Assembly: GCA_039680665.1 (NCBI GenBank)
Contig: JBDKSM010000143.1
Coordinates: 31,050 to 95,049 of the forward strand
DNA from: Syntrophaceae bacterium
GTDB taxonomy: Bacteria; Desulfobacterota; Desulfomonilia; UBA1062
Length of the DNA: 64,000 nt
Reading direction: 5' to 3'
Position numbers and translations under genes: made by a program. Shown here piece after piece: positions 22,778 through 39,959 of the stretch (its first letter is position 1; every line of letters begins with the position of its first letter). The notes beneath the pieces were generated by a model that made no database searches, was not told where the DNA came from, and was given only the letters and a program-made list of their open reading frames with translations.

Positions 22778-23836
22778 TTACTCCTTCGGAATCCAAGAAA
22801 ACCACCGCATCGGTTCTTTGACGGCCTGCTTGAGCTTCGGATTTCTCCAGCAGTCGAAACGCGCCTTCACAATGGCAAGCCGGAGAAGCTGTTTATTGAA
22901 TGGCATGCGGTCCATCTTTTCTTTGCGGGCGAGCTTATTGGCAAAACCGCACGAGAATTTCTGGAAGTCTTGCTTGGCTTGCTCGGGATCGGTCACCGCC
23001 AGGCTGGCCACTTTGCCCGAGAGCAAGGCCCCTACGATGCCGTAGCCCCAGAAGGGCTCAATCATGCCGCTAAGCGTCCCGGCCAGAATCTTGTCGTTCC
23101 AGTAGAGCTTGGTTTCGCGGGGGAAGTATCCGAGGAAATTTCTCCAGCGCGGGAAATCCAGACCATAGCTGTCCTTAAGCACCTGTCTGAAACGTTCAAG
23201 ATCATGTTCATGAAGCGGCGTACGCGAGAAGAGCAAGGCGAACATCATGCCGTTGAGCGCGGCGGAGTAGCCATAGTCCACACTGAAGCGACCCATGTGA
23301 ATAGCCCCGTGCGAGCCGCCTTTATCCCAGGGAATCGTAGCGAGGTATCCATAGGTTGAACTGTATTTCACCCCAACGAGCTCGTAGACCTCCTTATAGA
23401 GTCCTGTGGCGATGATACTGCCGGCCGGAGCCGCTTGCAGCGCATCGGGGTCAAGCGCATGGCCGAAACGGAACTCGACGCCTGCCTCTTGGGCCAAAGC
23501 GAAGAGTCTGCGGTCGATCGAGGTTTCCCGCGGCCCCCGCTCCACATTGTAGGCCTTGGAATTGTGCACATAGGGCGGCAGCGTCAGGCGCTTGGAATCA
23601 TACCAGAACTCGGGATAGATATCGGTCGGAACGAAATACTCCGAGAGATCGATGCCGATATAGTCCCAGGTCTGCCGAGGCTGCAAGGGGGTGGTATGGA
23701 TGGAGGGATGGACATCAGGCGAGCCGCCGATAGCCGATTCACGGTCGTAAATTGTAACCTTGTGCCCCTGACGTGCCAAATCAATGCCCGCGACCATGCC
23801 GGCCAATCCGGCGCCGAAGATGGATACATGTTTCAT
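22778..23836 (-). CDS. FAD/NAD(P)-binding oxidoreductase, paralog 1 of an uncharacterised family
   Basis: Rossmann motif VSIFGAGLAGMVAGIDLARQGHKVTIYDR. Family motifs shared with 50215..51195 and 57431..58495 are GG.P..HPSIH.TP, ERGPRE.S, P.GSIIATGL and ILAGTLSG. The first ATG is at 23836; the ORF track's 23860 start is a TTG. Confidence 0.75.
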   Translation of the reverse strand: MKHVSIFGAGLAGMVAGIDLARQGHKVTIYDRESAIGGSPDVHPSIHTTPLQPRQTWDYIGIDLSEYFVPTDIYPEFWYDSKRLTLPPYVHNSKAYNVERGPRETSIDRRLFALAQEAGVEFRFGHALDPDALQAAPAGSIIATGLYKEVYELVGVKYSSTYGYLATIPWDKGGSHGAIHMGRFSVDYGYSAALNGMMFALLFSRTPLHEHDLERFRQVLKDSYGLDFPRWRNFLGYFPRETKLYWNDKILAGTLSGMIEPFWGYGIVGALLSGKVASLAVTDPEQAKQDFQKFSCGFANKLARKEKMDRMPFNKQLLRLAIVKARFDCWRNPKLKQAVKEPMRWFSWIPKE

Positions 23837-23935: not shown

Positions 23936-24583
23936 TCACGATCGCGATGCAACCTTCAATCCCTTGCTATCCGCCGGTGTCAGGCCCTTGATAATGACTT
24001 CCAGGATCTGATCCGTGGCATCCTTGATGGAGATCTCATTCAAGGCATTCCTTTGGGGACGAAAGACGTATTGCCTGATGGCCATCTCCACTGATCCATT
24101 GAGCATGTATGAGGCCATGATCGGGGTTATCTTCTTGCTGAACAAGCCCATTTCCTGGCCTTCCCGTACGATCTCGGCCGCACCCTCCAGCGAGAGCTCG
24201 TAGAGTTTCTGGTTCTCCTCATCATGAAATCTGTTCAGCATGGGGATGTCCATGATCATGACCTTCACCAGATCAGGGCTTTTCTGAAAATTATCAAAGA
24301 CATACTGTACCAAGCAACGCAGCTTATCGCGCGGATCGAAATAATCCCGGCTGATCTGTTCGATCTTCTTCAGATAGACCTGCGTGTTCTCCTGAAAGAT
24401 GGCGATCAGCAGATCATCCTTGCTGGGGAAGTACCGGTATATCAGGCCATACGCGATCCCGGCTTCCTCCGCAATATCAGCCACGCGGCATCCGGAATAC
24501 CCCTGCTGCGCAAAGACCTTAACGGCCGCCTTCAGTATTAAATTTCTCTTGGAAAGATTCAATTTCGGTTCCGCCATGGGCAT
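23936..24583 (-). CDS. TetR/AcrR-family transcriptional regulator
   Basis: LILKAAVKVFAQQGYSGCRVADIAEEAGIAYGLIYRYFPSKDDLL. Start at MPMAEPK (ATG complement 24581-24583) with SD AGGAG. Confidence 0.85.
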   Translation of the reverse strand: MPMAEPKLNLSKRNLILKAAVKVFAQQGYSGCRVADIAEEAGIAYGLIYRYFPSKDDLLIAIFQENTQVYLKKIEQISRDYFDPRDKLRCLVQYVFDNFQKSPDLVKVMIMDIPMLNRFHDEENQKLYELSLEGAAEIVREGQEMGLFSKKITPIMASYMLNGSVEMAIRQYVFRPQRNALNEISIKDATDQILEVIIKGLTPADSKGLKVASRS

Positions 24584-24761: not shown

Positions 24762-25544
24762 TTATGCCGACGGCACCATCTCCCGGGCAATCAAGGCGGC
24801 GCCGATTGCCCCCACCATCTGCGGGTCCCAGCCGATCTTGTGGATCTTCACCCCCAGCGCTTCCTCAAGGGCGTTGAACATCCCCTCATTCTTCGCCACT
24901 CCGCCGGTCATGCCCACCTCCCCTTCCACGACGATCCCCTTGGCCAGGGCCGCCACCCGATGAGCCATGGCACGGTGCAGACCGCAAACAATATCCGGTA
25001 CGGGCTTGCCCGCGTTGATCAGCGACACGATCTCGGTTTCGGCAAATATCACGCACTGGTTCGAGACCTTGACCGGCGTTGTGGATTTCTGTGAGACCGA
25101 ACCCAGATCTTCCAGCCGCACGCCTAAAGGTTTGGCCATCACCTCTAGGAACCTGCCGGTACCAGCGGCGCACTTGTCGTTATAGGCATAGCGTATGACC
25201 TTCCCCTTTTCATCGAGCTTGATGGCCTTGGCGTCCTGGCCGCCGATATCGATGACCATGCGGATGGATGGTTCAAGCCACTGGGCCCCCCGGCCATGAC
25301 AGACGATCTCGGATTCAACGGCCTGGGCGAACGTGACCTGTTTCCTGCCATAACCGGTACCAACACAGCGCTCCACCTGATCCATGCGCATGCCTGCCTG
25401 GGCAAGGGCCTGCGCCATGACCTCGCGCGCCGATTCCTCGGGATCGGGTTTATCCCGCATGACGCAGGCAGCCAGGATGTTACTGTCCTCCATGATGACC
25501 GCCTTGGCGGTCCGCGATCCGATATCGCATCCGGCCACGATCAT
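24762..25544 (-). CDS. BcrAD/BadFG/HgdC-family ATPase (electron-activating subunit, copy 2)
   Basis: MIVAGCDIGSRTAKAV...DIGGQDAKAI...NDKCAAGTGRFLEVMA...SNQCVIFAETEIVS carries the ASKHA ATPase motifs and both Cys that ligate the bridging [4Fe-4S] cluster. ATGA overlap with the upstream ATPase gene (25541-25544). Confidence 0.85.
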   Translation of the reverse strand: MIVAGCDIGSRTAKAVIMEDSNILAACVMRDKPDPEESAREVMAQALAQAGMRMDQVERCVGTGYGRKQVTFAQAVESEIVCHGRGAQWLEPSIRMVIDIGGQDAKAIKLDEKGKVIRYAYNDKCAAGTGRFLEVMAKPLGVRLEDLGSVSQKSTTPVKVSNQCVIFAETEIVSLINAGKPVPDIVCGLHRAMAHRVAALAKGIVVEGEVGMTGGVAKNEGMFNALEEALGVKIHKIGWDPQMVGAIGAALIAREMVPSA

Positions 25545-26317
25545 AAACTCACCCCCCTGGCCAGCAGGGCCGCCCCGAGCGCGCCCACGATCTGGGGATC
25601 GACCGGCAAACGCCGCACGCGCATGCCGGTTATGGATTCCAATGACTTGACCACCCCCATGTTCTTGGCCACCCCGCCGGTCATGCACAGGTCGTTCTCG
25701 ATCCCGATGGTATTGATCAGCGTGGCCACGCGGCCGGCCATGGCATCATTGATGCCGGCGCAGATGTCAGGAAGCGGTGTGCGCTCACCCACCAGCCGGA
25801 TGATCTCGGCCTGGGCCCAGACCGTACAGGCGCTGGCAAGAACGGCCGGCTGTTTGGACTTCAGGGAAAGCTGGCCCAGATCCTCGAGCGTGATCCCCAT
25901 GAGATCGGCCATGACCTCCAGGAACCGGCCGGTGCCCGAGGCGCACTTGTCATTGGTGTAAAATTTGGCGATCTGGCCCTTGGCGTCGACCCGCATGGCC
26001 TTGCAGTCCTGGCCGCCGATATCGATGATGGTGCGCACCGCGGGCATGATCCAGTGGGCGCCTTTGGCATGGCAGACCAGTTCGGAAATGCACTGATCCG
26101 CAAACGGGATCTTTTCCCGGCCGTATCCCGTGCCCACGCAACGTTTAATATCCTGTTTGCCGATCTGTGACAACGCCAGCGCTTTGTGCAGCACCTCCTC
26201 AGCCGAGCGCGCGGGACTGGTATTGGCGTCGATCACGGCATAGCCCAGAATCCTGGTCTGGCCCAGCACGACCGCCTTGGCCGTTAGGGAACCGACATCG
26301 CATCCGGCCACGATCAT
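25541..26317 (-). CDS. BcrAD/BadFG/HgdC-family ATPase (electron-activating subunit, copy 1)
   Basis: MIVAGCDVGSLTAKAV...DIGGQDCKAM...NDKCASGTGRFLEVMA...ASACTVWAQAEII. ATGA overlap with the upstream gene (26314-26317). Confidence 0.85.
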   Translation of the reverse strand: MIVAGCDVGSLTAKAVVLGQTRILGYAVIDANTSPARSAEEVLHKALALSQIGKQDIKRCVGTGYGREKIPFADQCISELVCHAKGAHWIMPAVRTIIDIGGQDCKAMRVDAKGQIAKFYTNDKCASGTGRFLEVMADLMGITLEDLGQLSLKSKQPAVLASACTVWAQAEIIRLVGERTPLPDICAGINDAMAGRVATLINTIGIENDLCMTGGVAKNMGVVKSLESITGMRVRRLPVDPQIVGALGAALLARGVSL

Positions 26318-27708
26318 TGCAGTACCCCCCTGATTTTCAAAAATTCGCTGCACTTGCCGATCAGGTTGTCCACCGGGTCCACCCGGTTGTCAAAGGAATC
26401 GCCGTAGCTGACAAAGGTGGGGTAGCCCGCCTTCTCCAGATCCCTGACCATGAGCTTGACATTGCTCCAGGTGTTACGGCACCCCATGGTCCCGATATAG
26501 AATAAGACATCCGGTTTGACGATGCGGGCCATGGAGAGCGTGTCGTCCAGCCACATCATGGGGGCGTCATAAGGGCCCCTGATATTCTTGACCATGGGAA
26601 AGCGCGAGGTCTGGAGCGCCAGCGAATCGATGATTTTGTCATAGGATGAAAGATCCATTTCATAGCCCTCCTCCGGATGCTTGAGGAAGGGGTTGCCCTT
26701 GGGCCAGAAATCGTTCAAAAAGGCCGCGACATTCGAAATGCCCTGTTTGCGGTTCCATATGATCCATTTGATGTTGGGGCAGAAATGATCGATGTAGAAG
26801 AAAAAGGCCCGCACCTTTTCCTCGCCGACCCCGGCAATACCCTTGGCGGCATTGGCCTTGGCGATCCTGAGCATGGATTCCAGGAGCGTGGTATACTGCT
26901 TGGATCCCAGATAGATCATGCGGAAGGCGAAGTTCATCATGGCATACAGGGGGGGCATGGGGCAGGGGATGATCTGCTGCAGGTCCTGGAGTTCGTTGAA
27001 CATCTTGTCCTGGATCACGATCTCATCGGCCACTTCACGCAACCGGTCCATGTCCATCTTGCGGCCCGTCTGTTCCTCCAGGAAGGCCACCATGTTGCGA
27101 AAGTCCGCGCGGTGGTATTCGGCGGCCCTCTCGTCCGTCAGGGTGGGCGGATAATTGATGTTACACTGCGGGATGCCCAGATAGGACGAGGCAAAGGCAT
27201 AGGAAACGGCGTTGGAGTCGCACACCCCGGCCGTGGAGTACAGGATCATGTCGGGTTTTACGCCCAGTCCCGCCAGGATCGGACCCAGGGCGAGCCGCTG
27301 TCCGGTGCAGGAAGTCTCGGTGAAGCCTTTTTCGCAGCCGAAGTCCAGACAGTCGCTGATGCCCTGCTTCCATACGGCCGTGTAGAAGGTGGTCATGGCC
27401 TCGAGGCAGAACGGCACGATGTCGAAGGCATGCAGGATGGCGGGCGAGAAGTTGAAGGTGACCAGGGCCACCTTCTTGCCATGCGCATGCGCATTGACGA
27501 TTTCCTCAATGTAGTCTCTGATGAAGGTCACCATGAGCACGCCCGGCTCGCCGGTGCGGATGATCTCGTCCAAGGCGTCCCGATAGCTGGGGGCATAATT
27601 CAGTGAGTACTGATATTCCTTCTGCGTGGCGTTGGACAGGCCCAGCGCCTTGCGGGCCAGGCTTCCGAGACGCCAGTCAAAATCATATTCTTTAAACACT
27701 TCGCGCAT
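26314..27708 (-). CDS. 2-hydroxyacyl-CoA dehydratase / benzoyl-CoA reductase B (BzdO/BcrB/HgdA-like) subunit
   Basis: 464 aa. The HGD-D family look and size match BcrB/BzdO, and it is adjacent to two activator-type ATPases and a BcrC-like gene. Assignment rests on overall resemblance and context, not a computed alignment. Confidence 0.7.
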   Translation of the reverse strand: MREVFKEYDFDWRLGSLARKALGLSNATQKEYQYSLNYAPSYRDALDEIIRTGEPGVLMVTFIRDYIEEIVNAHAHGKKVALVTFNFSPAILHAFDIVPFCLEAMTTFYTAVWKQGISDCLDFGCEKGFTETSCTGQRLALGPILAGLGVKPDMILYSTAGVCDSNAVSYAFASSYLGIPQCNINYPPTLTDERAAEYHRADFRNMVAFLEEQTGRKMDMDRLREVADEIVIQDKMFNELQDLQQIIPCPMPPLYAMMNFAFRMIYLGSKQYTTLLESMLRIAKANAAKGIAGVGEEKVRAFFFYIDHFCPNIKWIIWNRKQGISNVAAFLNDFWPKGNPFLKHPEEGYEMDLSSYDKIIDSLALQTSRFPMVKNIRGPYDAPMMWLDDTLSMARIVKPDVLFYIGTMGCRNTWSNVKLMVRDLEKAGYPTFVSYGDSFDNRVDPVDNLIGKCSEFLKIRGVLQ

Positions 27709-27717
27709 AGGTCCCCC

Positions 27718-27963
27718 TTAGATACTCAGGCTCATGGAAGCCCCGCTCTTGAAGCGCTGTATATACAGCCGTGCCCGGTCCTTCAGAATGTCCATGGTGT
27801 TCTGTTTGGCAATATGGTTCAGGACCGGCAGGGCATGCTCGCGGAAAAGGGTCAGGGCATCGATGGCCCGCTGGCGTTCGGCCACCATACGCTCCTCATC
27901 CATGGCGATACTCAAAAGCGTCTCCATGGTTATCATCTGATGGTCCACACAATCTTGACACAT
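27718..27963 (-). CDS. small helical protein (81 aa) inserted between the two HGD-D-family subunit genes; unknown function
   Basis: MCQDCVDHQMITMETLLSIAMDEERMVAERQRAIDALTLFREHALPVLNHIAKQN.... ATG complement 27961-27963 with SD GGAGGTG. It fills the gap between 27987 and 27708 exactly. Confidence 0.5.
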   Translation of the reverse strand: MCQDCVDHQMITMETLLSIAMDEERMVAERQRAIDALTLFREHALPVLNHIAKQNTMDILKDRARLYIQRFKSGASMSLSI

Positions 27964-27986
27964 AGGCTCACCTCCATTTCCGTTTT

Positions 27987-29120
27987 TTACTGGATCCGCT
28001 CCAGAAAGGCATCCACCCGCATGCGCACGCGGCCGTCCTCGACCAGGGGACCATACTCCCGTTCGATGCGTATGCACGGGATGCCCATGGCCTCCAGATC
28101 GCGTTCGAAAAGGCCGTTTTCCGAGCCGTGCATGTCGCAGAAACGGACATTCTGCAGGATGACCCCGTCCACCTTGGCCTTGAGCGCCTTTTCCTTGAGG
28201 CTCTGATAGCGGGGCTGATAGTAGGCGAACATGCGCGGGCAGAAGCTGCGGTTCAGGTAGCGTTCGGACAGGGCTTTAACCGGGTCACCCTCGGTGCTTA
28301 CCAGATCGTCGAAGAGCTTGGAGCCGAAGCAGAGCGTGTCAGCCACGACCACGGCGCCGGCCTCCTCGATGACCCGCACCAGATCGGTATCATCGGTCAC
28401 GCTGCCGCCTAAGAGCACGCGCTTGCCTTTCATCCCATTGGGCTTGGCCTGTTCCAGCTCTCCCAAGGTTTCCTCCAGCAGGGGTACGTATTCGCTCCAC
28501 GGCAGGGCCGTGGAGGCCAGGATGATGGTGGTGGCATCGGTCCCGGAGATAACAATCTCATCGCGCATGCGCAGCTTTTCCAGACGCTGCAATAGCCGCC
28601 GACCCGTATTGTAGAGCTCGATCTGCTCCCGTAAGCGCTCGTCCGTGATCTTGACACCGAAATGGTTCTCCAGACTCTCAATGAGCAGGCGATTTTCCTC
28701 CTCGAACCACTTCAGGCTGTACGGCTCAACCTTATGCGGCGTGCCATAGTAGTGGTAGTAGGCCGGCAGGATACCCGGAATATCTTCATTGGCCTTGCGC
28801 CAGCACTCCTCCAGACGCCGCATGGTGTCACAGCCGTTGGTGATGATGGCGCCGTCGAGAAAGCGGTATGTGCCTTCCCCGGCCAATTGCAACAGGCATT
28901 TGGGATAACTGCAGACCACGGGCCCGTAATAGCTGTCGCCGATGTCCGTGGTGGCTGCCTCGATCCCCCGCAAGCGGTAGGGCAGCAGACCGGCCGCGCC
29001 GATGATCTCGGAAGGCACGTAGGTGCACGAATACCCCACCACCTTTTTGCCGGCGGCCTTCCAGGCCTGTACCGAGCCGTTATTGAGCTGATTTGCCGCT
29101 TCGCTGAGCTCTTTTCTCAC
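27987..29120 (-). CDS. 2-hydroxyacyl-CoA dehydratase / benzoyl-CoA reductase C (BzdN/BcrC/HgdB-like) subunit
   Basis: 377 aa. The N-terminus WKAAGKKVVGYSCTYVPSEIIGAAGLLPYRL is typical of the HGD-D family. GTG start at 29120 is preceded by AGGAGGTG. Confidence 0.7.
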   Translation of the reverse strand: MRKELSEAANQLNNGSVQAWKAAGKKVVGYSCTYVPSEIIGAAGLLPYRLRGIEAATTDIGDSYYGPVVCSYPKCLLQLAGEGTYRFLDGAIITNGCDTMRRLEECWRKANEDIPGILPAYYHYYGTPHKVEPYSLKWFEEENRLLIESLENHFGVKITDERLREQIELYNTGRRLLQRLEKLRMRDEIVISGTDATTIILASTALPWSEYVPLLEETLGELEQAKPNGMKGKRVLLGGSVTDDTDLVRVIEEAGAVVVADTLCFGSKLFDDLVSTEGDPVKALSERYLNRSFCPRMFAYYQPRYQSLKEKALKAKVDGVILQNVRFCDMHGSENGLFERDLEAMGIPCIRIEREYGPLVEDGRVRMRVDAFLERIQ

Positions 29121-30603
29121 CTTTCACCTCCTGCTCCGAAAATAAGACACTGCGTAAGGCTACCAGGGCCTCACCGTGTTCCGGGGAAGCATTATCCGGG
29201 GCCAGCAAGGCGGCCACACCTTTGACCAGGTTTGGAACCACCGCATCGGTAATCGGTTTGAGGGCTGTTAATCCATCCTGGATGAGCCATTCCGAACAGT
29301 TTTTCAGCTCATCCAGGTCCAGGCAGGTGGCCACGGAGGCGCACAGATTCGTAAGACGCTCGGGGTCATGGGCATGGATGGCATTGGCCAAGCGCAATAC
29401 CGCGCTTAAACCATCGCCCAGTTCCTGGGTATCAAGCCCGGCCATGCCATCGGAAATGGCCTGGAGCACCTCGGCACGAGGCAGCTCTTCCAGTACGCCC
29501 ACCTTCTTGCGCCAGGTGCGTATGGCCGGGTTCTTGAGTTTGGCATAGGCGCCCAGGAGTTCGTACACGAACTCCGGATGATCGCCCAATACCACGGCTT
29601 GGGCCTGGGCCATGAATTCCTTTTCCTCGGCCATGGCCACCTGGGCCTTACGCTTCAGCACCGGATCCATGGCCGCGTAGGCTTCCAGCAGCACGCGCCG
29701 CATATCTCTAGTAGTGAGCGATTCGCCCCCTTCCATGTAGAAGACGCTGCCCATATGCAGCTGCCTGATCACCTCGTTGAGCGAGTTCATGATGGCGCCG
29801 ATGGGCGCGCCTTCGATATCGCGCATCAAGGCAAATAAGAGTTCCGTGAGCAGTTCGGGTGCAATGGGGTTGAGCGAACCCACTACTTCCTGCAAGGCCT
29901 TCACGGCAATGTTGATGGCCCTGACCGCGCTGGCGGCCAGCATCAGCACCTTGGAGGGATATTCCCATAAGATTTCAACGACCTTGGTGACCATGGCCAC
30001 GAGCGGACCTTCACTTGCATCGAGAAGATCCTTGATCTCCGCGAAATCACTGTTTTTGAAAAATGTCTCCAACGGGGTTTGAGCCAGGTCGACCAGCAAG
30101 CCGGGTTCTTTTTCAAGCATGGCGCTCAGCCCCTGCAAACTCGACGTGAACAGCTTGCCGAGCTGCGCGTGGTCGATACCATGCACCATAGCCTTGATGG
30201 CATTGGCCTTCTCTTGTGGTGATAGGGCTTGCATGGCATCCCCCATTCGCGTCAATGCGGCCAAGATGATGTTCACGACCTCCGGCACTGCGCCAAAGAT
30301 ATCGATTATGTTGTGCGGATCGGACCAAAAGACCTCAAGGGCATGACCGTTGTCGCGGGCCGATCGCGGATCGATGAACCCGTAGGCCGCCTTCAGGATG
30401 ACATGCTCGGTCAATTTCTTCTTGACCCGGCTCTGGCCCGACCAAGCATAGAACAGATCGGCGATAACATTTTTAACCACCTCCTTGCCGCCCTGGGTCC
30501 TGATCACGCCGGAGACGATCTTGCTCAAGAGCTCAGCGCCATTGCCGCCCTGCGTCACGCCGTGCTTGTGTTTGAACCATTCTTCCATATCGCTGCCGCT
30601 CAT
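29080..30603 (-). CDS. hypothetical all-helical protein (507 aa) with three copies of a W-x-[DE]...P..(N)..AL motif
   Basis: Start at MSGSDMEEWF (ATG complement 30601-30603) with SD GAGGAGG. ATGA overlap with the upstream gene, and a 41-nt overlap with the downstream BcrC-like gene. No family recognised. Confidence 0.6.
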   Translation of the reverse strand: MSGSDMEEWFKHKHGVTQGGNGAELLSKIVSGVIRTQGGKEVVKNVIADLFYAWSGQSRVKKKLTEHVILKAAYGFIDPRSARDNGHALEVFWSDPHNIIDIFGAVPEVVNIILAALTRMGDAMQALSPQEKANAIKAMVHGIDHAQLGKLFTSSLQGLSAMLEKEPGLLVDLAQTPLETFFKNSDFAEIKDLLDASEGPLVAMVTKVVEILWEYPSKVLMLAASAVRAINIAVKALQEVVGSLNPIAPELLTELLFALMRDIEGAPIGAIMNSLNEVIRQLHMGSVFYMEGGESLTTRDMRRVLLEAYAAMDPVLKRKAQVAMAEEKEFMAQAQAVVLGDHPEFVYELLGAYAKLKNPAIRTWRKKVGVLEELPRAEVLQAISDGMAGLDTQELGDGLSAVLRLANAIHAHDPERLTNLCASVATCLDLDELKNCSEWLIQDGLTALKPITDAVVPNLVKGVAALLAPDNASPEHGEALVALRSVLFSEQEVKGEKRAQRSGKSAQ

Positions 30604-31247
30604 AGCGTTTGCCTCCTCTTCTTCCACGTAGTGAAGCGTTCCCGAACACGGCCGGCCAGCATCTGCGCCGCCCAAGAGAAGAGCTTCGGCCGCTGATCAA
30701 GCACGGCATTGAGGATGGTACCGGTCATCCGGGAAAGTTCATGGGCATCGATATTGGCCATAATACCTTTCGCCAAGGCGGATATCTGGGTGGGATCCTG
30801 GCTGTGGAGGTCATTGACGTTGCGAGCCACCACAGTAATCGCTTTGCCGACGGCTTTGGGCGTGTCCGTACCCGAGGCCCGGATCAGACCCTGGGTGAGC
30901 CGTATGGCAGCCGACCCCGCTTTGTGCAAGGGTTCGGTATCCAGGTCCTCCCTCAGGGCCTGAATAACGGCCAACAACATTGGGGGTGGAAATTTCTCCT
31001 CAGCCTGAATGATCACCTCGCTCAAGGCCCCGATGAGGTAATTGATGATGGCCGGCAGGCCATCGACCAGGGCAAGGGCGACGCCCACATCCTCCCAGAG
31101 GAGCGTGCGCACGAGCTCGGCACCGTTCTTGGGGTTGATGTTAACCAGAGAATTCCAAAGCATCTCTTTGATAAACGGGGTATCAAGGATCTCCTTGAGA
31201 ACACTGCCCGTATACGCGGATGGGATGGTTCCATCGATGCCGTTCAT
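30600..31247 (-). CDS. hypothetical helical protein (215 aa), paralog of 31244..31681
   Basis: Start at MNGIDGTIP (ATG complement 31245-31247) with SD AGGAGG and ATGA overlaps on both sides. It shares LVRTLLWEDVGVAL and FPP..L motifs with the 145-aa neighbour. The Arg/Gly-rich N-terminal 94 aa of the ORF-track version is rejected. Confidence 0.6.
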   Translation of the reverse strand: MNGIDGTIPSAYTGSVLKEILDTPFIKEMLWNSLVNINPKNGAELVRTLLWEDVGVALALVDGLPAIINYLIGALSEVIIQAEEKFPPPMLLAVIQALREDLDTEPLHKAGSAAIRLTQGLIRASGTDTPKAVGKAITVVARNVNDLHSQDPTQISALAKGIMANIDAHELSRMTGTILNAVLDQRPKLFSWAAQMLAGRVRERFTTWKKRRQTL

Positions 31248-31681
31248 ACCCCACCTCCTTCGTCGGACAGGGTCTGAACGCCCGCGTCGGGTGCGTTTTG
31301 GGAAAAGAGCGGTGCAATTTCGGCCAGGATGCGGGATAATCCCGTTGTGACATTCCCCACCGCCACCAAATCTATGTCGGCCAAGATGATCCTGACCACC
31401 TCGCGTAAAAACTCCGGTGGAAAATGGTCGTTGATCTGCGTTACCGTTTCTTCGGCCGCCTTGATGCAGGCATTGGCCACCTTTGGGATGGCATCCGCGA
31501 CTGACAGTGCCACCCCCACATCCTCCCAAATCAAGGTACGCACGAGATCCGGGACGGAACCCGGATCGATGTGATTCAGAAGTGTAGCCAGATTGGCCTT
31601 GAACCCCGGCTTATTGAGCAGGGCCTTGGCGATGCGGTTGCCCAGCTCGAAGATCCCTTTAGTTTTTGCGTTTTCATCCAT
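31244..31681 (-). CDS. hypothetical helical protein (145 aa)
   Basis: MDENAKTKGIFELGNRIAKALLNKPGF...LVRTLIWEDVGVALSVADAIPKVANACIKA. SD GAGGTG lies 6 nt upstream, 13 nt after the ACAD stop. Confidence 0.6.
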   Translation of the reverse strand: MDENAKTKGIFELGNRIAKALLNKPGFKANLATLLNHIDPGSVPDLVRTLIWEDVGVALSVADAIPKVANACIKAAEETVTQINDHFPPEFLREVVRIILADIDLVAVGNVTTGLSRILAEIAPLFSQNAPDAGVQTLSDEGGGV

Positions 31682-31694
31682 GACGCACCTCGCT

Positions 31695-32951
31695 TCACAG
31701 GGTCTTGCAATCGTAGAAATAGCGGGCGCCTTCCATGAGGGCCAGCTGTTTCCCGCCCAGCCAGAGCTGCACCATTTTCATGTCGCGCCAGTGCTTTTCG
31801 ATATCCCACTGCCTGTCCGCGCCGTATTCCTGCAGGATATTCATGGCCCGGCCGGCGTCCTGATAGGTGCGGTCGGCTACAAACATCTTGGTGAGCCGGG
31901 CCTTGGCCACGTTCTGATGGGACCAGCGCGGCCCATACAGGTCGGGCCGATCGAGCACGGCCGCCAGGCCGTACACGGCGCTGCGGCAGGCCTCGATGCC
32001 GCCCGCGATCTCCGCCAGTTCGGCGGCCACGGCCTCGTGTTCATTGAGCGGACGGCCGTGCAGGGTTTTCCGGGCGCAGAAATCACAGAGCTTTTCATAG
32101 ATATCCAGCAAAGGGCCAACGTTGAAAATGGCGGTCAGCATGCCTAAGCACATGACTTCCTTGTAGCGCAGGGCATCCTTGCCCGGCCCCAGTGCCCGGT
32201 AATAGGCCGGCACGCGCACGTCTTCGTACCAGACGTCGCTGTTCTTGTCCGAGGCCACACCGGCCTTTTCATACGGTTTGCCCTGGGTCACGCCGGGCAG
32301 ATCGTCGGGCACGAAGATAAAGGCGATGTCGTCGTCGTTCGAGGAGCCGGGATTGGTGGTGCAGACCACGCCGTGAACATTGGCCACTCCGCCGGAGTTC
32401 GAGGGCCAGAGCTTATGCCCGTTGATTACCCATTCGTCGCCGTCGAGTCTGGCCGTGGTCCGGATGGTACTGCCGTGGATCAGGTCCACGTTCTCGATAT
32501 CCGACCCACCCTGCGGCTCGGTCATGAACAGGCCCCCGAAAAAGAGTTTGTCCTTGGACTGGGCCAGGGGCGCCAGGTCGGCCAGGAGTCTCATATTGTA
32601 TTCAGGCTTCATGGCGATCATGAGCAGCGACCAGTAGCCCGAGGCAAAGGCGATGTTCATGCCCAGGTCGCCGCGCGACATCTCCTCGAAGACCACGGTA
32701 CAGAACGATGCGATGTTGGAGACATTGCCCGCGCCCCACCCGCCCAGCTCCGGCGGCATGAAGGCCTTCTGCCAGCCGATATCGATCATGAGCACCTTGA
32801 GGGCCTCGTCGAAGATCGCATGCGAGTCCCAGTGTTCGTCAAATTCGCGGCGGCGCGGACGCACATAGGTATCCACCCAGTTGCGCATCATGGTGCGCAG
32901 CGTGGAAGCCGGCATGGTGCGGTAGGTCGAGAAATTATACGATTTTTTCAT
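31695..32951 (-). CDS. acyl-CoA dehydrogenase-family protein (418 aa), non-canonical active-site motif
   Basis: ACAD fold motifs (FMTEPQGGSD, INGHKLWPSNSG, EKHWRDMKM). At the position of the canonical I-Y-E-G-T it reads LWLGG. SD AGGAGG; ATGA overlap with the upstream ACAD. Confidence 0.85.
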   Translation of the reverse strand: MKKSYNFSTYRTMPASTLRTMMRNWVDTYVRPRRREFDEHWDSHAIFDEALKVLMIDIGWQKAFMPPELGGWGAGNVSNIASFCTVVFEEMSRGDLGMNIAFASGYWSLLMIAMKPEYNMRLLADLAPLAQSKDKLFFGGLFMTEPQGGSDIENVDLIHGSTIRTTARLDGDEWVINGHKLWPSNSGGVANVHGVVCTTNPGSSNDDDIAFIFVPDDLPGVTQGKPYEKAGVASDKNSDVWYEDVRVPAYYRALGPGKDALRYKEVMCLGMLTAIFNVGPLLDIYEKLCDFCARKTLHGRPLNEHEAVAAELAEIAGGIEACRSAVYGLAAVLDRPDLYGPRWSHQNVAKARLTKMFVADRTYQDAGRAMNILQEYGADRQWDIEKHWRDMKMVQLWLGGKQLALMEGARYFYDCKTL

Positions 32952-34201
32952 GCGTTACCTCCTGATCCGAAAAAGGCCCGGGCGATATCCATCTGCGCGG
33001 GAATGCCGCCCCCCAGATAGGCCTGCATGGTTTTGATATCGCGCCAGTGCTTTTCAAGGTTCCACTCCTTGGAATACCCGGCCGAGGCCATCAGCTCCAT
33101 GCCCCGGTCCATGCCGTGCCAGCACTCGGCAATGGCCTTGAGCGAGGCGGACTGGGCCAGTACGAAACAATCCTCCACGTTCCTGATCCCGAAGACCTCG
33201 GGCTGCGCCATGGCGCGCGCCAGGGAATGCACCAGGAGCCGGGAATTCATGATCGACATGGCCAGGTTTGCCAAAACAGCGGCGCACATGGGGTTGTCGC
33301 GAAAGGGCATGCCGCCCTTGATGACCCGGTTATCGGCCCAGTTTTTCAGGATGACGTAGGCGTCCATGGCCGAACCTACGGCCACGGCCCCGCACAAGAG
33401 GTCGATCCAGGTGATGAAGCGCTTGTAGGTCGCCAGGTTGATGGGGATGCCGTATTGGAGCGGCACTTCCACAGTATCGAAATCGACCGAACAATTTCTG
33501 CTCGCCAGCAGGCCCGTGGTCTTGAGCGGCGCCGAGGCCTTTTTAACCCCCTGGGCGTCCGCGGGCACCAGCACCAGCACGATCTCATTTTGCGCGGCGG
33601 CGATCACGGCATACATATGCGCGTCAAAACCGGAATTCATGGGTCGCGCCTGTCTGGCCCGCACGACCCAGGTGTCGCCCCTGCGTTCTGCCGTGGCTTG
33701 GGCCTCCTTGCCGCTGATCATGGCCCGGGCCGCTTGTCCTGCATCTCCGAGACCGGGCAGGATGATCGATACCAGCTTCATATCCCCGGCATAGAAGGCG
33801 GAGAATACCGCGCGCTTTATCTCTTCCGTCACATGCGGCCCGATAATGCCTTCCGTGAGGAAACAGGCCAGGGCCATCTTCATGGCCGACACATAGGCGA
33901 TTCCCGGATCAGCCCGGCCCATCTCTTCATAGCCGCGCACCAAGGTGGTGGCGACCGTGGGGGCCAGCAGACCCGACCCGCCGGATTCGACCGACCATAC
34001 CATTTCATCGAGGCCCAATTCGCGCGAAAGAATATCCAGGGCCTTCATCTGATGCGCATATACCTCTCTGAACTCCAGGCGTTTGGTGATCAGCTCCTGA
34101 TTGGCCCAGCGCGCCACCGTCTGGGCCATGGAATGGGATTCTTCCGTCTCCCATTCTTTGGGATAGGGGAAATAATCCATAGCGGGGCTTAAGCTTACCA
34201 T
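32948..34201 (-). CDS. acyl-CoA dehydrogenase-family protein (417 aa), non-canonical; probable partner of 31695..32951
   Basis: ACAD-like C-terminus MELMASAGYSKEWNLEKHWRDIKTMQAYLGGG, with AYLGG replacing IYEGT. Start at MVSLSPAMDY (ATG complement 34199-34201) with SD AAGGAGGTGG; the ORF-track start at 34228 is a TTG. Confidence 0.8.
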   Translation of the reverse strand: MVSLSPAMDYFPYPKEWETEESHSMAQTVARWANQELITKRLEFREVYAHQMKALDILSRELGLDEMVWSVESGGSGLLAPTVATTLVRGYEEMGRADPGIAYVSAMKMALACFLTEGIIGPHVTEEIKRAVFSAFYAGDMKLVSIILPGLGDAGQAARAMISGKEAQATAERRGDTWVVRARQARPMNSGFDAHMYAVIAAAQNEIVLVLVPADAQGVKKASAPLKTTGLLASRNCSVDFDTVEVPLQYGIPINLATYKRFITWIDLLCGAVAVGSAMDAYVILKNWADNRVIKGGMPFRDNPMCAAVLANLAMSIMNSRLLVHSLARAMAQPEVFGIRNVEDCFVLAQSASLKAIAECWHGMDRGMELMASAGYSKEWNLEKHWRDIKTMQAYLGGGIPAQMDIARAFFGSGGNA

Positions 34202-34437: not shown

Positions 34438-35139
34438 TTATTGCCGTGCATCCGCCGTCAGGTGTGTGGTTACAATGTTCCGAGCGCTCCGATACGGCTC
34501 TTTCCCGACCATCTTGCGCACATTCTTGATGGTATCGACGGCCAAGCTCTTCGTCAGCAGCTGCAGGACGGGCGTTGGAAGCGAGCCTCCGACATCGGCC
34601 AGGATCTGATAGGTCACCTCGGTTTTACCTTCGGCAATGGGCTTCATGATGCAGCAGACCTCGACCAGGGGCAATCGCATCCCTCCCCTCTCCTGGGCGG
34701 GAACAGCTGCGTCCTGGATGCCTTTTCCCCTCAGAGTCAATGTTCCGGTTGTTCTATCCAGGCTGAGTTCGTGTTTCATGATCGCATAGCGGTCGGAAAC
34801 CGGCCAGGGCAGCCCTTGCCTGAAGTAGCTGTAATAGCTGTCCGCGGAACTTGCCTTTTCGGGCGACTCGATCTTATACGCCTTGGAGCACATGAACATC
34901 CACTGCTTCTCAGCCGGGATATCGCGCACTACCGCTTCCAGCACCGCTACCGGTGCATCAACCACTCCGATCGCCTTGGTTTCGTTGACCGGGCTGCGCG
35001 GATTGCTGCGGGCATACCCCATGATGCCGTCACAGGAGCGGATTTGCCTCCATTCGCCGCACGCCTCCTGTCCAAAACCGGCCGAAGACAACAGAAAAAG
35101 TGTCACTGCCACAGCTGCCAAACCGAGCCCTTTCTTCAT
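34438..35139 (-). CDS. exported START/SRPBCC-like lipid-binding protein (tentative)
   Basis: Signal peptide MKKGLGLAAVAVTLFLLSSAGFG. The mature ~210 aa has START-like length and features (..QWMFMC...YYSYFRQGLPWPVSDRYAIM..). SD GGGAGGTG. The fold call is by eye only. Confidence 0.45.
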   Translation of the reverse strand: MKKGLGLAAVAVTLFLLSSAGFGQEACGEWRQIRSCDGIMGYARSNPRSPVNETKAIGVVDAPVAVLEAVVRDIPAEKQWMFMCSKAYKIESPEKASSADSYYSYFRQGLPWPVSDRYAIMKHELSLDRTTGTLTLRGKGIQDAAVPAQERGGMRLPLVEVCCIMKPIAEGKTEVTYQILADVGGSLPTPVLQLLTKSLAVDTIKNVRKMVGKEPYRSARNIVTTHLTADARQ

Positions 35140-35154: not shown

Positions 35155-36414
35155 TCAAACAATTTCAATTGCACCGAAAACACCTTTATCTTTGAGTTCG
35201 CCGATCTCGTCCACCCTCAATCCAATCTCGGTCAGCACCGCAAGCGTATCCTGGCCGATACGGCACCCGATGCGTTTGTAGACAGGCGCATAGCCGGAAA
35301 ACTTGATCGGACAGGCGAGCTGTTCATAGGATTTGCCGTTCAGGCCCGGGACTTTCACGAGGAGTTCACGCGCGGCGGCGTGTTCGCTCCGGATAGCCTC
35401 GGCAAAGGTCAGCACCGGTTCAAAGCAGGCGTCCTTTTCCTTGAACAAAGCCACCCAATGCGCCAGCGGCTTGGTTCTGATGACCTCGGCCACCTGGCGC
35501 TTGGCCTCTTCAACCCGGCCGGGCTGCAGGACGCTCCCCGCGATGAGGTCCTCGAGCCCGATGGCCGTACAGAAGACCGTGAAGAATTGATGCTCAAGGC
35601 CGCCGAAAGAGATGTATCTCCCATCCGCGGTCTCATAGAAACCATAGAGCGACCCCCCATTGAGCACCTCGTTCTCATAGGTGCTTGGTGCATCGCCGCA
35701 TAATTCCTTTATGGCGGCGGCGGCATGAAAGGGGAACAGCCCATCGGTCATGGAAATATCGATATGCTGGCCCAAACCGGTGGCATGGCGATGAATGACG
35801 GCCGCCAGGATGCCGATTACGGTGTTGTTGGTGCCGGAACCGATATCGGCCAGCTGGGTGCCGAGCAGGGCCGGACCGGTGTCCTTGCGGCCGGAATAGC
35901 TCATGAGACCGGAAAGGGCCAGGTAATTGACATCATGGCCGGCTTTGTCCTTTAATGGCCCGCTCTGGCCGTAGCCGGTCAGGGAACAGTAGATCAAGCC
36001 CGGATTGATGGCACAAAGGCGCTCGAACGAAAGCCCCAAGCGCTCCATGACCCCGGGCCGGAACTGTTCCACCACGATATCGTAGGCCTTGATCATACGC
36101 TCGATAAGGGACACGCTCTCAGTTTTTTTCAGGTCCAGAGAGAGCGAACGTTTATTGCGGTTGAGGTAGGCATGCAGGCATGATATCGGGCCGTCATCCT
36201 CAACATAAGGGGGCGCCAGGCGCGCCAGATCAGGCCTGGTAGGGGATTCAATCCGCACCACATCGGCGCCCAGATCGGCCAGCATCAAAGTGGCCAGAGG
36301 TCCGGGCAGGAGCGTGGTGAAGTCCAGGACCTTGAGTCCGGACAGCAACGATCGTCCGAGATCCTTTGTATCTGCTGTTGATTTTCCCACGATGCCCCCT
36401 TTTCGATCACTCAA
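35155..36414 (-). CDS. family III CoA-transferase (CaiB/BaiF/BbsF-type)
   Basis: LSGLKVLDFTTLLPGPLATLMLADLGADVVRIE...RNKRSL.LDLK...GVMERLG are family III signatures. 36414 is a TTG; an alternative GTG at 36390 has SD AAGGGGG. Confidence 0.9.
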   Translation of the reverse strand: MSDRKGGIVGKSTADTKDLGRSLLSGLKVLDFTTLLPGPLATLMLADLGADVVRIESPTRPDLARLAPPYVEDDGPISCLHAYLNRNKRSLSLDLKKTESVSLIERMIKAYDIVVEQFRPGVMERLGLSFERLCAINPGLIYCSLTGYGQSGPLKDKAGHDVNYLALSGLMSYSGRKDTGPALLGTQLADIGSGTNNTVIGILAAVIHRHATGLGQHIDISMTDGLFPFHAAAAIKELCGDAPSTYENEVLNGGSLYGFYETADGRYISFGGLEHQFFTVFCTAIGLEDLIAGSVLQPGRVEEAKRQVAEVIRTKPLAHWVALFKEKDACFEPVLTFAEAIRSEHAAARELLVKVPGLNGKSYEQLACPIKFSGYAPVYKRIGCRIGQDTLAVLTEIGLRVDEIGELKDKGVFGAIEIV

Positions 36415-38807: not shown

Positions 38808-39959
38808 ATGTCGTTGCTTGATGCGCACTATACACAAGAGCACAACATCTTTCGTGAATCGGCCAAGCGGTTTTTCGAGCGGGAGCTATCGCCCAATGTC
38901 GAGCAGTGGGAAAAAGACGGGATCGTACCGCGCGAGCTCTGGAAAAAGTTCGGGGGGCAAGGATTCCTCTGCCCCTGGTTGCCGGAGGATTACGGCGGGG
39001 TGGGAGCTGATTTTCTCTACAGCTGCATCTTGATGGAAGAGTGCGCCAAAACCCATTGCGGAGGCTTCTTCTTTGTCCTGCATACCGATGTGGTCGTTCC
39101 CTATATCTATCATTTTGGGAGCGAGGAACAAAAGAAGCGTTATCTGCCCGGTTGCGCCACGGGAGATATCATCACGGCCGTAGCCATGACCGAGCCCAAT
39201 GCCGGTTCAGACCTGGCCGCCATCCGCACCACGGCGGTCAAGGAGAACGGCCATTATATCCTGAACGGCCAGAAGACCTTCATATCCAACGGGTTCCTCT
39301 CCAACCTGGTGGTTGTGGCGGCTAAGACCGATACCAAGGCCAATCCCCCCTATACTGGCATCTCCCTATTCCTGGTCGAGGACGGCACGCCCGGCTTCGA
39401 GCGCGGCCGCAAGCTTGAAAAGGTGGGGCTGCATTCCCAGGACACCGGCGAAATGGCCTTCGTGGACTGCAAGATTCCGAAGGAGAATCTGCTGGGCGAG
39501 GAAGGCAAGGGCTTTCAATATCTGATGGACCGCCTGATGGATGAGCGCATCGTGGCCGCTATGGGTTCCCAGGTCGCGGCCGAAGAGGCCATGCGGCTCA
39601 CCGTCGACTTCACCAAGAACCGCGAAGTCTTCGGCCGACCCATCAGCCGCCATCAGTACATATCCTTTGAGCTGGCCAAGCTCGCCACCGAGGTCGCGGT
39701 GGGCCGCTCGTTCGTGGACGACCTGGTTCTGATGCACTTAAACGGCCAGAAAGACATCATGAAGGCCTCCATGGCCAAGTACTGGGTCACGGAAATGTTC
39801 AACCGTGTGGTGGCACAATGCCTCCAGTTCCACGGCGGGTACGGCTACATGGAAGAGTACCCCATTGCGCGCATGTTCCGGGATGCCCGGGTCCAGACCA
39901 TTTATGCCGGCAGTTCCGAAATCATGCTGCTGATCATCAGCCGCTGCATGGGTTTGTGA
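38808..39959 (+). CDS. acyl-CoA dehydrogenase (IVD/LCAD-type catalytic base placement)
   Basis: MTEPNAGSDLA and NGQKTFISNG are present. The C-terminus reads IYAGSSEIM (no Glu in the YEG position), but a Glu sits in DTGEMAFVDCKIP at the IVD/LCAD-type position. Confidence 0.9.
   Translation: MSLLDAHYTQEHNIFRESAKRFFERELSPNVEQWEKDGIVPRELWKKFGGQGFLCPWLPEDYGGVGADFLYSCILMEECAKTHCGGFFFVLHTDVVVPYIYHFGSEEQKKRYLPGCATGDIITAVAMTEPNAGSDLAAIRTTAVKENGHYILNGQKTFISNGFLSNLVVVAAKTDTKANPPYTGISLFLVEDGTPGFERGRKLEKVGLHSQDTGEMAFVDCKIPKENLLGEEGKGFQYLMDRLMDERIVAAMGSQVAAEEAMRLTVDFTKNREVFGRPISRHQYISFELAKLATEVAVGRSFVDDLVLMHLNGQKDIMKASMAKYWVTEMFNRVVAQCLQFHGGYGYMEEYPIARMFRDARVQTIYAGSSEIMLLIISRCMGL

Follow-up and report, generated by a model that had tools for sequence, protein, structure and literature searches.

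A stretch of 64,000 nucleotides (nt) from a Syntrophaceae bacterium (NCBI GenBank assembly GCA_039680665.1, contig JBDKSM010000143.1, positions 31,050 to 95,049; hereafter the window) encodes an ATP-coupled 'archerase' system consisting of two HGD-D-family subunits, N and O, and two ATPases. To our knowledge, archerases attain the lowest redox potentials known in biology, and we know of only three characterised types, i.e. benzoyl-CoA reductases (BCR), 2-hydroxyacyl-CoA dehydratases (HAD), and the double-cubane cluster protein (DCCP), whose function is unknown. Our comparisons suggest that the family found in the window is a fourth, deep archerase lineage. It would join a BzdNO-type set of metalloclusters to an active site unlike that of BzdO or HadB, and its two-subunit ATPase would have evolved independently of that of BCR. 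What the enzyme does is a matter of graded likelihood; our tentative preference is for a reductase acting on an acyl-CoA other than benzoyl-CoA.

The core locus

All core genes lie on the minus strand, in the order N-O-ATPase-ATPase, with a small open reading frame (ORF) between the first two.

27987-29120, minus strand: N-type HGD-D subunit, 377 amino acids (aa) (Pfam HGD-D, E = 1e-85, 289 bits)
27718-27963, minus strand: conserved helical 81-aa ORF, between the N and O genes (JGI gene call)
26314-27708, minus strand: O-type HGD-D subunit, 464 aa (Pfam HGD-D, E = 3e-33, 116 bits)
25541-26317, minus strand: ATPase paralogue 1, 258 aa ('archerase'; BcrAD_BadFG, E = 2e-55)
24762-25544, minus strand: ATPase paralogue 2, 260 aa (BcrAD_BadFG, E = 1e-56)

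Two HGD-D subunits of 377 and 464 aa and two ATPases of 258 and 260 aa had been proposed in an earlier, sequence-only reading of the window, and this assignment stands. All four proteins score above the Pfam gathering thresholds (HGD-D twice, BcrAD_BadFG twice), and the four core products are identical in the gene call made independently by JGI for the same contig (metagenome contig 3300027536, Ga0209163_1000077, 235 kb, which covers the window). The inventory of that reading was nevertheless incomplete, as it had missed the 81-aa ORF and three further genes, encoding proteins of 145, 215, and 507 aa, that are described below. The O/ATPase and ATPase/ATPase junctions each show a 4-nt overlap, which implies a fixed stoichiometry. 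HGD-D folds and ATPases with two bridging-cluster cysteines, the features that define the superfamily of class I BCR (BCR I), HAD, and DCCP, are both present. The Bzd-like architecture and subunit sizes noted earlier are borne out by the gene order and by the cysteines described next, six in N and three in O.

The N subunit and its predicted double-cubane cluster

BzdN, the corresponding subunit of a class I BCR, binds an [8Fe-9S] double cubane via Cys36/73/100/263/293/327 (Fuchs et al. 2025, PMC11971306). More generally, the cluster complement divides the superfamily: DCCP has two double cubanes, BCR a double cubane and a [4Fe-4S] cluster, and HAD a [4Fe-5S] and a [4Fe-4S] cluster (PMC11971306). 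In our alignment, all six BzdN cluster cysteines have counterparts in the window's N subunit (Cys32/70/97/264/294/328), and none of these six residues, nor Arg49 or His331, varies among 70 family members. N also has equivalents of BzdN Arg53, Arg290, and His330, and at position 268, the equivalent of BzdN Arg267, there is a Lys in the window and an Arg in 67 of the 70 relatives. The double-cubane cysteines are completely kept in BzdN and DCCP in the same alignment (6/6 each), whereas HadC, which lacks equivalents of Cys32 and Cys264, keeps 4/6 and MbdN 3/6. N is thus predicted to carry an [8Fe-9S] double cubane ligated by its six conserved cysteines.

Against solved structures, N scored 145 bits with BzdN, 126 with HadC, 117 with MbdN, and 115 with DCCP, with 26-31% identity to each. 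These four solved proteins were the only references in a neighbor-joining tree of N-type subunits. The window family is monophyletic (100/100 bootstraps) and sister (100/100) to a second, distant, uncharacterised clade, N', which adjoins it in many genomes. It groups with none of BzdN, HadC, MbdN, and DCCP, the best alternative grouping having 26% support, which leaves the enzyme outside these characterised clades.

Scores against NCBIfam equivalog models point the same way, all being far below the respective cut-offs. For N these were 180 bits (cut-off 350) with the double_cubane model NF040772, 149.8 (700) with HadC, 139 (453.8) with BzdN (TIGR03190), and 128 (421) with BcrC; for O, 34.7 (750) with HadB and 25 (448.6) with BzdO (TIGR03191); and for the two ATPases, 210 and 192 (380.2) with BzdQ (TIGR03192). 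By these comparisons, the enzyme is placed outside every characterised clade, as a separate and uncharacterised lineage of the BCR I/HAD/DCCP superfamily.

The O subunit and its predicted active site

In BzdO, an aqua-[4Fe-4S] cluster is held by Cys95/128/380 and lies beside Glu65 and His131 (PMC11971306). The alignment of the 464-aa family contains only three invariant cysteines, Cys134, Cys163, and Cys410; the other invariant residues are Glu103, Asp164, Asn166, Tyr305, His308, Arg411, Asn412, and Trp414. Cys134 and Cys163 align with BzdO Cys95 and Cys128, and likewise with HadB and DCCP ligands, while Cys410 falls on the third ligand position of N-type subunits in a profile-profile comparison. 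When the N and O profiles are aligned with each other, O keeps counterparts of N Cys97 and Cys328, plus a Cys at or next to Cys70, and has no counterparts of N Cys32, Cys264, and Cys294, the three ligands of the distal subcluster, as is the case in BzdO. These patterns predict a [4Fe-4S] cluster with an open coordination site, bound by Cys134/163/410, and Glu103 as the catalytic residue, which would make O the putative catalytic subunit. The predicted cluster complement of N and O together is BzdNO-like.

The surroundings of this putative cluster differ from those in the known enzymes. Glu103 aligns with HadB Glu55; it has no direct alignment to BzdO, of which the Glu65 counterpart is probably kept as this residue. 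Three other BzdO active-site residues are replaced: His131 by the invariant Asn166, Tyr97 by Gly136 (a position that varies in the family), and Gln274 by Ile306. Close to its cluster ligands, the family has invariant residues of its own (Asp164, Asn166, Tyr305, His308, Arg411, Asn412, and Trp414). The active site of O appears to be unlike that of BzdO and unlike that of HadB.

The O-family profile matched HadB with 65 bits, DCCP with 49, BzdO with 39, and MbdO with 22. An AlphaFold2 (AF2) model of O (mean predicted local distance difference test score, pLDDT, 88.7) gave template modelling (TM) scores and identities of 0.72 and 20% with HadB, 0.75 and 16% with BzdO, 0.72 and 17% with DCCP, and 0.71 and 14% with MbdO, and a Foldseek probability of 1.00 to all four. 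The model, which fits O/alpha-type chains better than N/beta-type chains, is equidistant from these structures. It begins with a helical extension of ∼78 aa before the first strand, which is ∼48 residues longer than that of HadB and is conserved in the family (Glu7 and Tyr8 are invariant; Asp11, Trp12, and Trp15 nearly so). In DCCP, such an N-terminal extension shuts the CoA channel (PMC7317905).

The two ATPases

Each ATPase contains an NDKCA[SA]GTGRFLE motif (with Cys125) and a downstream Cys164, whose positions match those of the cluster cysteines in HgdC, HadI, and MbdQ. Both cysteines and the nucleotide-binding motifs are invariant in the two paralogues (69 and 63 family orthologues), which extends to these orthologues the earlier statement that each ATPase retains both ligands of the bridging cluster. 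The paralogues share 50% identity over 254 residues without gaps. They match MbdQ with 217 and 216 bits (paralogues 1 and 2, respectively), HadI with 209 and 198, HgdC with 190 and 184, and MbdP with 132 and 130. In a tree with reference sequences taken from printed alignments (MbdQ, MbdP, HadI, HgdC, and DCCP-R), the orthologues of each paralogue are monophyletic in 100/100 bootstraps, and the joint clade of the two excludes all five references in 100/100.

Because the paralogues are only 50% identical and orthologous pairs are found in >60 loci, the duplication is old; they are not the recent duplicates that would have refuted the sequence-only reading. The pair stems from an old lineage-specific duplication of a Q/HgdC-type activator, a second, independent origin of a heterodimeric archerase, and does not consist of BzdP/BzdQ orthologues. 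That two ATPases mark a class I reductase, as had been argued, is a matter of analogy, not orthology: they are sister paralogues, with ∼216 bits to MbdQ and ∼130 to MbdP. The paralogues also differ from each other in a fixed manner. All 69 orthologues of paralogue 1 have Gln at position 169, where paralogue 2 and the five reference ATPases have Glu, and position 105 is a fixed Cys in paralogue 1 and mostly Ala in paralogue 2. The restriction of fixed Gln169 and Cys105 to paralogue 1 argues for an obligate asymmetric heterodimer, and the conserved pair with its fixed asymmetry would fit a stable asymmetric complex sitting on a heterodimeric core.

The operon and its helical proteins

The core genes are part of a longer run of genes on the minus strand, in which the following acyl-CoA dehydrogenases (ACAD) and other proteins are encoded.

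36643-38508, minus strand: long ACAD, 621 aa, with an Acyl-CoA_dh_C extension (domain matches)
35155-36390, minus strand: family III CoA-transferase, 411 aa (Pfam CoA_transf_3, 319 bits)
34438-35139, minus strand: START-domain (lipid-binding fold) protein, 233 aa (Pfam START, E = 5.5e-10)
32948-34201, minus strand: divergent ACAD-like subunit, 417 aa, with a weak middle domain
31695-32951, minus strand: ACAD, 418 aa, in which the three ACAD domains are all present; partner of the 417-aa subunit
31244-31681, minus strand: helical protein, 145 aa (0 Pfam matches)
30600-31247, minus strand: helical protein, 215 aa, paralogue of the 145-aa protein (0 Pfam matches)
29080-30603, minus strand: all-helical protein, 507 aa, directly upstream of the N gene (0 Pfam matches)
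23936-24583, minus strand: TetR-family regulator, 215 aa, directly downstream of the ATPases
22778-23836, minus strand: flavin adenine dinucleotide (FAD)-binding protein, 352 aa, weakly like geranylgeranyl reductases and CrtI

From the 417-aa ACAD to the 260-aa ATPase, neighboring genes overlap by 4-41 nt or are separated by ≤23 nt, which indicates one tightly coupled unit. Within it, the genes for the 145-, 215-, and 507-aa proteins are translationally coupled and immediately upstream of N, and the last one runs 41 nt into the 377-aa gene. The stop of the 417-aa ACAD gene overlaps the start of the 418-aa ACAD gene by 4 nt, from which the two are likely to form a heteromeric enzyme. The candidate that this is a steroid-type (FadE26/27-like) ACAD pair was rejected, with ≤86 bits to any solved ACAD and no preference for 4X28. 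A strong promoter-like site (11/12 positions matched) is found at 38583-38555, just upstream of the gene for the 621-aa ACAD, which is probably the first gene of the transcription unit.

The helical proteins are recurrent partners of the enzyme. In 58 of 60 related loci, the gene that immediately precedes N encodes the 507-aa protein (its cluster spans 64 loci); the 215-aa protein is conserved in 34 loci, and in 25 of 46 loci the ACAD pair precedes the module together with the 145- and 215-aa proteins. Searches of Pfam up to E = 5 and of PDB profiles with the 507-, 215-, 145-, and 81-aa proteins returned chance-level matches only. Among 1.84 billion proteins, the 507-aa family counts only 304 representatives (265-529 aa for the 150 top-scoring ones listed), and an AF2 model built with six close homologues (pLDDT 35) shows only an all-helical character. 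The three larger proteins have in common a helical domain of ∼110 aa (hhalign probability 99.9% and 97%; for the 215-aa versus the 145-aa family, 99.9% with E = 7e-35), which appears to be undescribed so far. The 81-aa protein, which is characterised by a ERQRAIDALTLF motif, is encoded between or beside the N and O genes in 30 related loci with 43-58% identity; the N-terminal CxxC of the window's copy is not conserved.

Distribution and conserved neighborhood of the family

For the 464-aa subunit, there are 293 cluster representatives with E ≤ 1e-5 and 212 hits in one-genome-per-species GTDB contigs (185,579 species-representative genomes). The best 80 of these 212 hits are all in metagenome-assembled genomes (MAG), mostly of Thermodesulfobacteriota (Smithella, Syntrophaceae, Syntrophales, Desulfomonilia, and Desulfobacterales), with a few in Spirochaetota/Leptospirales, Bacillota, and Myxococcota; no N47 or NaphS2 records are among them. 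The lineages concerned (Smithella, Syntrophales, Desulfobacterales, and Desulfomonilia), which are uncultured syntrophs and sulfate reducers, are prominent in methanogenic digesters, peat, sediments, and oil-degrading consortia. Literature searches on Smithella/Syntrophales, BCR/HAD, and double cubanes found no paper on this family.

Synteny was compared in 78 loci. O is followed by the two ATPase paralogues in constant order, and in many genomes the module is a compact cassette devoid of ligase or ring-cleavage genes, and often of CoA ligase or transferase genes. In at least 44 of the 57 loci with enough downstream sequence, the ATPases are followed by a gene for a 244-aa CdhC-like protein, with an acetyl-CoA-synthase middle domain (Pfam CdhC) and a C-x2-C-x5-C tail, and then by a gene for a CooC/MinD-like P-loop ATPase with a CxC motif. 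Examples in related loci are as follows.

L086:12974-14468: CdhC-like plus CooC-like gene pair
L088:13004-14541: CdhC-like plus CooC-like gene pair
L089:13086-14577: CdhC-like plus CooC-like gene pair

The two proteins look like a metallocluster maturation or carrier pair. Their genes are absent from the window, as assessed by tblastn, and are also lacking in a 92%-identical locus (L008); in both, the TetR gene and the gene for the 352-aa FAD protein occupy this position.

Several variations on the module were seen. In a large subclade that includes Smithella, two tandem 464-aa paralogues follow one N subunit (L019-L048, L086:8531-11404, L089:8577-11419), which hints that catalytic subunits are exchanged or that there are two substrates. 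Directly downstream of the module there is often another, distant HGD-D pair (L088:14534-17909, L017, L046, L052); its N' is 30% identical and has all six double-cubane cysteines, its O' is 23% identical, and it is accompanied by one ATPase only (∼43% identity), sometimes plus a Fer4 protein. The complete module, including the ACAD pair, is found in 'Deltaproteobacteria bacterium Phox-21' (L024, MPOS01000025.1), which we take to be a phosphite-oxidising autotroph. If the binning is right, carriage by this genome argues against a purely hydrocarbon or aromatic catabolic role.

Two candidate partners were discarded. A cluster of 'conserved' 329-aa ORFs in related loci turned out to be the antisense of the ATPase genes. 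A 2-hydroxyacyl-CoA lyase was rejected as a conserved partner, the thiamine diphosphate (TPP) enzyme being found in one locus only (L087), where it lies 6 kb upstream and scores 353 bits with 2-hydroxyacyl-CoA lyase.

The wider window

The neighbors named in the sequence-only reading, i.e. ACAD, a family III CoA-transferase, and MaoC, short-chain dehydrogenase/reductase (SDR), and thiolase genes, are all present near the core genes. Among related loci, the family III CoA-transferase, which scores below all NCBIfam equivalog cut-offs, is common only to L010, and the START-domain protein was not found in any. Homologues of the 352-aa FAD protein with 66-70% identity adjoin the module in L012 and L015. 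The reported lack of ferredoxin and ring-modifying (dch/had/oah-type) genes nearby was upheld in part: there is no ferredoxin gene in the operon, and crotonase-type (dch/had/oah-like) families had 0 matches among the window ORFs that were scanned or JGI-called, but a 374-aa protein with a Fer4 (2x[4Fe-4S]) domain is encoded 27 kb from the core genes.

A divergent operon (38808-50181) encodes an ACAD, a fusion of an HMG-CoA (3-hydroxy-3-methylglutaryl-CoA)-synthase-like protein with DUF35, an SCP-x type thiolase, MaoC, SDR, two acyl-CoA ligases, and a major facilitator superfamily (MFS) transporter. The neighbors include a bbs-like β-oxidation set, with acyl-CoA ligases of long-chain type, and the context is lipid- or branched-acid-like rather than benzoyl-CoA-like. 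The 487-aa fusion (40078-42762, plus strand, with the thiolase) combines an archaeal-type HMG-CoA-synthase-like domain with a DUF35/ChsH2 Zn-ribbon/OB domain and scores 194 bits with NF003274 (cut-off 244). Together with the adjoining thiolase, it is similar to the thiolase/HMGCS/DUF35 complex of archaea, or to the BbsAB and steroid side-chain aldolase systems. Four AMP-forming acyl-CoA ligases are encoded within 12 kb on the plus strand (44701-46470, 48265-50181, 52759-54516, and 54621-56294), with the MFS transporter (46962-48299) among them, which suggests a catabolic island for several carboxylic acids; the sole ligase scanned against NCBIfam scored highest with long-chain fatty-acid-CoA ligase models.

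Three FAD-binding proteins of ∼330-354 aa, weakly like geranylgeranyl reductases and CrtI, are encoded at 22778-23836 (minus strand), 50215-51195 (plus), and 57431-58495 (plus). The 374-aa protein with its C-terminal 2x[4Fe-4S] ferredoxin domain is at 56296-57420 (plus). In the closest relatives of the module (L012, L014, L015, L087), homologues of the 352-aa FAD protein, the ferredoxin-domain protein, and the 557-aa ligase are again encoded next to it. The leftmost 17 kb of the window consist of housekeeping genes, among which a PKD/K319L-like repeat protein of ∼1,060-1,080 aa is encoded (7878-11129, minus strand). On the other side, an AbiEii-family nucleotidyltransferase toxin of a type IV toxin-antitoxin system (58686-59549, plus strand) is followed by a 199-aa ORF with no Pfam match.

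Proposed function and alternatives

We tentatively favor, at a little under an even chance, an ATP-driven reductase with a BzdNO-type electron path, whose substrate would be an acyl-CoA other than benzoyl-CoA, linked to the ACAD pair. What the analysis shows is the set of genes with their domains and ligand sets, the structure of the operon, how the family is distributed, and the phylogeny of the ATPases; we infer the cluster types, the direction of electron flow, net reduction as opposed to redox-neutral catalysis, a CoA-ester substrate, and all roles of the helical proteins. In brief, the 258- and 260-aa ATPases would form an obligate heterodimer around a bridging [4Fe-4S] cluster, held by Cys125 and Cys164 of each. 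Once reduced by a cellular ferredoxin, the heterodimer would hydrolyze ATP and send energised electrons into the [8Fe-9S] cluster of the 377-aa subunit, which can store two. The electrons would then pass to the [4Fe-4S] cluster of the 464-aa subunit, which would have one open iron (for water or substrate) beside Glu103, and where a CoA thioester would be reduced by ketyl or hydrogen-atom-transfer chemistry. The substrate would be a conjugated acyl-CoA made or consumed by the co-transcribed heteromeric ACAD, and the 145-, 215-, and 507-aa proteins and the 81-aa protein may serve as structural or substrate-handling partners. Among solved relatives, the complete six-Cys set is found only in the reductases BzdN and DCCP, which supports a reductase, as do the translational coupling of the ATPases to the core and their fixed asymmetric pairing. 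The replacement of His131, Tyr97, and Gln274, the lack of dch/had/oah genes, and the lipid-type neighbors speak against benzoyl-CoA as the substrate; the same suggestion in the sequence-only reading is reasonable, also in view of the equivalog scores below cut-off and the lack of a supported grouping with any reference.

A number of observations weigh against such a reductase. The 464-aa subunit is, if anything, nearer to HadB than to BzdO (65 versus 39 bits in the profile search, 20% versus 16% identity in the fold alignment), and the earlier Bzd-like reading needs correction in this respect. His131 is missing from HadB as well. MbdN (PDB 9g87_B), which belongs to a genuine class I reductase, has just three of the six double-cubane cysteines in our alignment, so the double cubane is not universal in class I aryl-CoA reductases and does not define a reductase; retention of six cysteines in N may simply be ancestral. 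Neither gene calls nor scans found a ferredoxin gene in the operon. Class I BCR are typical of facultative anaerobes (PMC11971306), and the hosts here are mostly strict, energy-limited anaerobes, for which 2 ATP per reduction are costly. Finally, ACAD together with a family III CoA-transferase are a hallmark of had/fld 2-hydroxyacyl-CoA dehydratase operons, so that these neighbors do not count against a dehydratase.

Much of this would be accounted for by an HAD-type radical (de)hydratase, an unlikely but serious alternative. Using a single recycled electron, the 464-aa subunit would interconvert 2-hydroxyacyl-CoA and 2-enoyl-CoA via a ketyl radical, with the ACAD pair and, in the window, the CoA-transferase supplying or removing enoyl-CoA and free acid; in the hydration direction, this would amount to an oxygen-independent α-hydroxylation of fatty or branched acids. 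The best O-profile match and highest structural identity to HadB, with Cys134, Cys163, and Glu103 aligned, the shared absence of His131, and the had/fld-like make-up of the unit all speak for it, as do ATPases nearly as close to HadI and HgdC (184-209 bits) as to MbdQ, a catalytic use of ATP suited to energy-limited syntrophs, and the TPP enzyme upstream of the module in L087. However, N keeps the complete double-cubane ligands that are lost in HadC, there are two fixed asymmetric ATPase paralogues instead of one homodimeric activator, the gene order is bzd-like and unlike that of had/hgd, and the equivalog scores are very low (HadB, 35 of 750; HadC, 150 of 700). Moreover, the CoA-transferase is not conserved in the family, the TPP enzyme is confined to one locus, and the module has no 2-hydroxyacid dehydrogenase or etf genes.

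Two further explanations appear improbable. A reductase that dearomatises the aryl-CoA ester of some substituted or partially reduced aromatic acid (e.g. tetrahydronaphthoyl-CoA-like compounds, alkylbenzoyl-CoA, or naphthenic-aromatic acids), equivalent to ThnBCDE/MbdONQP in hydrocarbon-degrading Syntrophales, would agree with the BzdNO-like architecture and cluster complement, and with hosts, Smithella/Syntrophaceae MAG, whose lineages occur in hydrocarbon-degrading methanogenic consortia. The window also contains, at 38808-44631, a MaoC/thiolase/SDR/ACAD/CoA-transferase set like that of thn (PMC12016498). It is opposed by the replacement of the BzdO residues that contact ring and thioester, BzdN, BzdO, and BcrC scores far under the cut-offs, the lack of a ferredoxin, ring hydratase, or hydrolase, and the compact cassette devoid of ligase and ring-cleavage genes in many genomes, and by the presence of the module in the Phox-21 MAG, presumably of a phosphite-oxidising autotroph. 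We give similarly little credence to a DCCP- or PlsAR-like reductase of a substrate that is not a CoA ester, such as a small molecule or a lipid (ester-to-ether conversion or another membrane-lipid modification), with the helical proteins as lipid- or membrane-handling partners. Here, the double-cubane reductase model as best NCBIfam match of N (180 bits), the ∼78-aa extension of O, of a kind by which DCCP shuts its CoA channel (PMC7317905), the frequent lack of CoA ligase and transferase genes, the START lipid-binding protein in the window, and the CdhC-like protein and maturation-type CooC-like ATPase in most relatives are to be set against an ACAD pair tightly linked in half of the loci, the CoA enzymes that surround the module in the window, an O subunit that resembles the CoA-ester-binding HadB and BzdO as closely as DCCP, a score of 180 against a cut-off of 350, and the absence of the PlsA-type DUF2229 domain.

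Beyond the reductase that we favor, a bolder idea, which we regard as doubtful, is that all conserved components (heteromeric ACAD, three helical proteins, 81-aa protein, N/O, independently evolved ATPase heterodimer, and mostly the CdhC-like/CooC-like pair) form a multi-subunit radical system of strict anaerobes. This would be a new class of enzyme, transforming an aliphatic, branched, or isoprenoid acyl-CoA for which no oxygen-independent enzyme is known. Candidate reactions may be an α-hydration that bypasses a β-methyl block (anaerobic α-oxidation), or a reductive or skeletal step on hydrocarbon-derived acids in syntrophs. The hosts of the lineage are energy-limited organisms in which a stoichiometric ATP-driven reduction is unexpected. 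Knowing the substrate would extend anaerobic carbon cycling by a new reaction, and would also probe the use of double cubanes beyond benzoyl-CoA reduction.

Comparison with characterised systems

BzdNOPQ from Aromatoleum/Azoarcus (PDB 8S02, PMC11971306) has the same gene order, similar subunit sizes (377 versus 379 aa for N, 464 versus 447 aa for O), the same six [8Fe-9S] cysteines with an Arg/His second shell in N, three [4Fe-4S] cysteines and a conserved Glu in O, and two distinct ATPase subunits, each with both bridging-cluster cysteines. Identity is however only 29% for N and ∼16% for O, with BzdO His131, Tyr97, and Gln274 replaced in the window, and neither ATPase of the window is an orthologue of BzdP/MbdP, so that its composition is not that of a P plus Q pair. 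In addition, the window has no linked ferredoxin or dch/had/oah genes, and its system includes the 507-, 215-, 145-, and 81-aa proteins and the ACAD pair.

HadBC/HadI (PDB 3O3M, 4EHT) resemble the window system in that HadB is the best O-profile match, with the Cys and Glu55 positions kept, the ATPases are 41% identical to HadI, and the operon contains a family III CoA-transferase and ACAD, as does the had operon. They differ by a HadC with 4/6 ligands and a [4Fe-5S] cluster, whereas N keeps six, by one homodimeric activator in place of two fixed paralogues, and by gene order.

DCCP/DCCP-R (PDB 6ENO, 7YYL) share the six-Cys motif of N, with the highest identity among the references (31%), an ASKHA 'archerase' electron donor, and a long N-terminal helical extension on O. 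In contrast, the two identical subunits of the DCCP dimer each hold a double cubane, whereas N/O is of heterodimer type, with only half of the ligands left in O; N has Gly (position 52) in place of the seventh Cys of the DCCP motif, and DCCP is served by one ATPase instead of two. Membership in the plasmalogen synthase family PlsAR was also considered and dropped, with DUF2229 and the fused architecture both absent.

MbdONQP (PDB 9G87, 9GAI) and ThnBCDE (of N47 and NaphS2; N47_E41460-90 and NPH_5888-91) are four-subunit systems of class I type whose substrate is not benzoyl-CoA. In the PDB, both ATPases match MbdQ best (216-217 bits), but MbdN has 3/6 cysteines, O is farther from MbdO than from any other O-type reference (22 bits, 14% identity), and MbdP has no orthologue here. 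The likeness to ThnBCDE, taken from the published description of the operon, lies in a β-oxidation-like neighborhood, since the reductase of the thn operon is embedded among MaoC, thiolase, SDR, ACAD, and CoA-transferase genes (PMC12016498).

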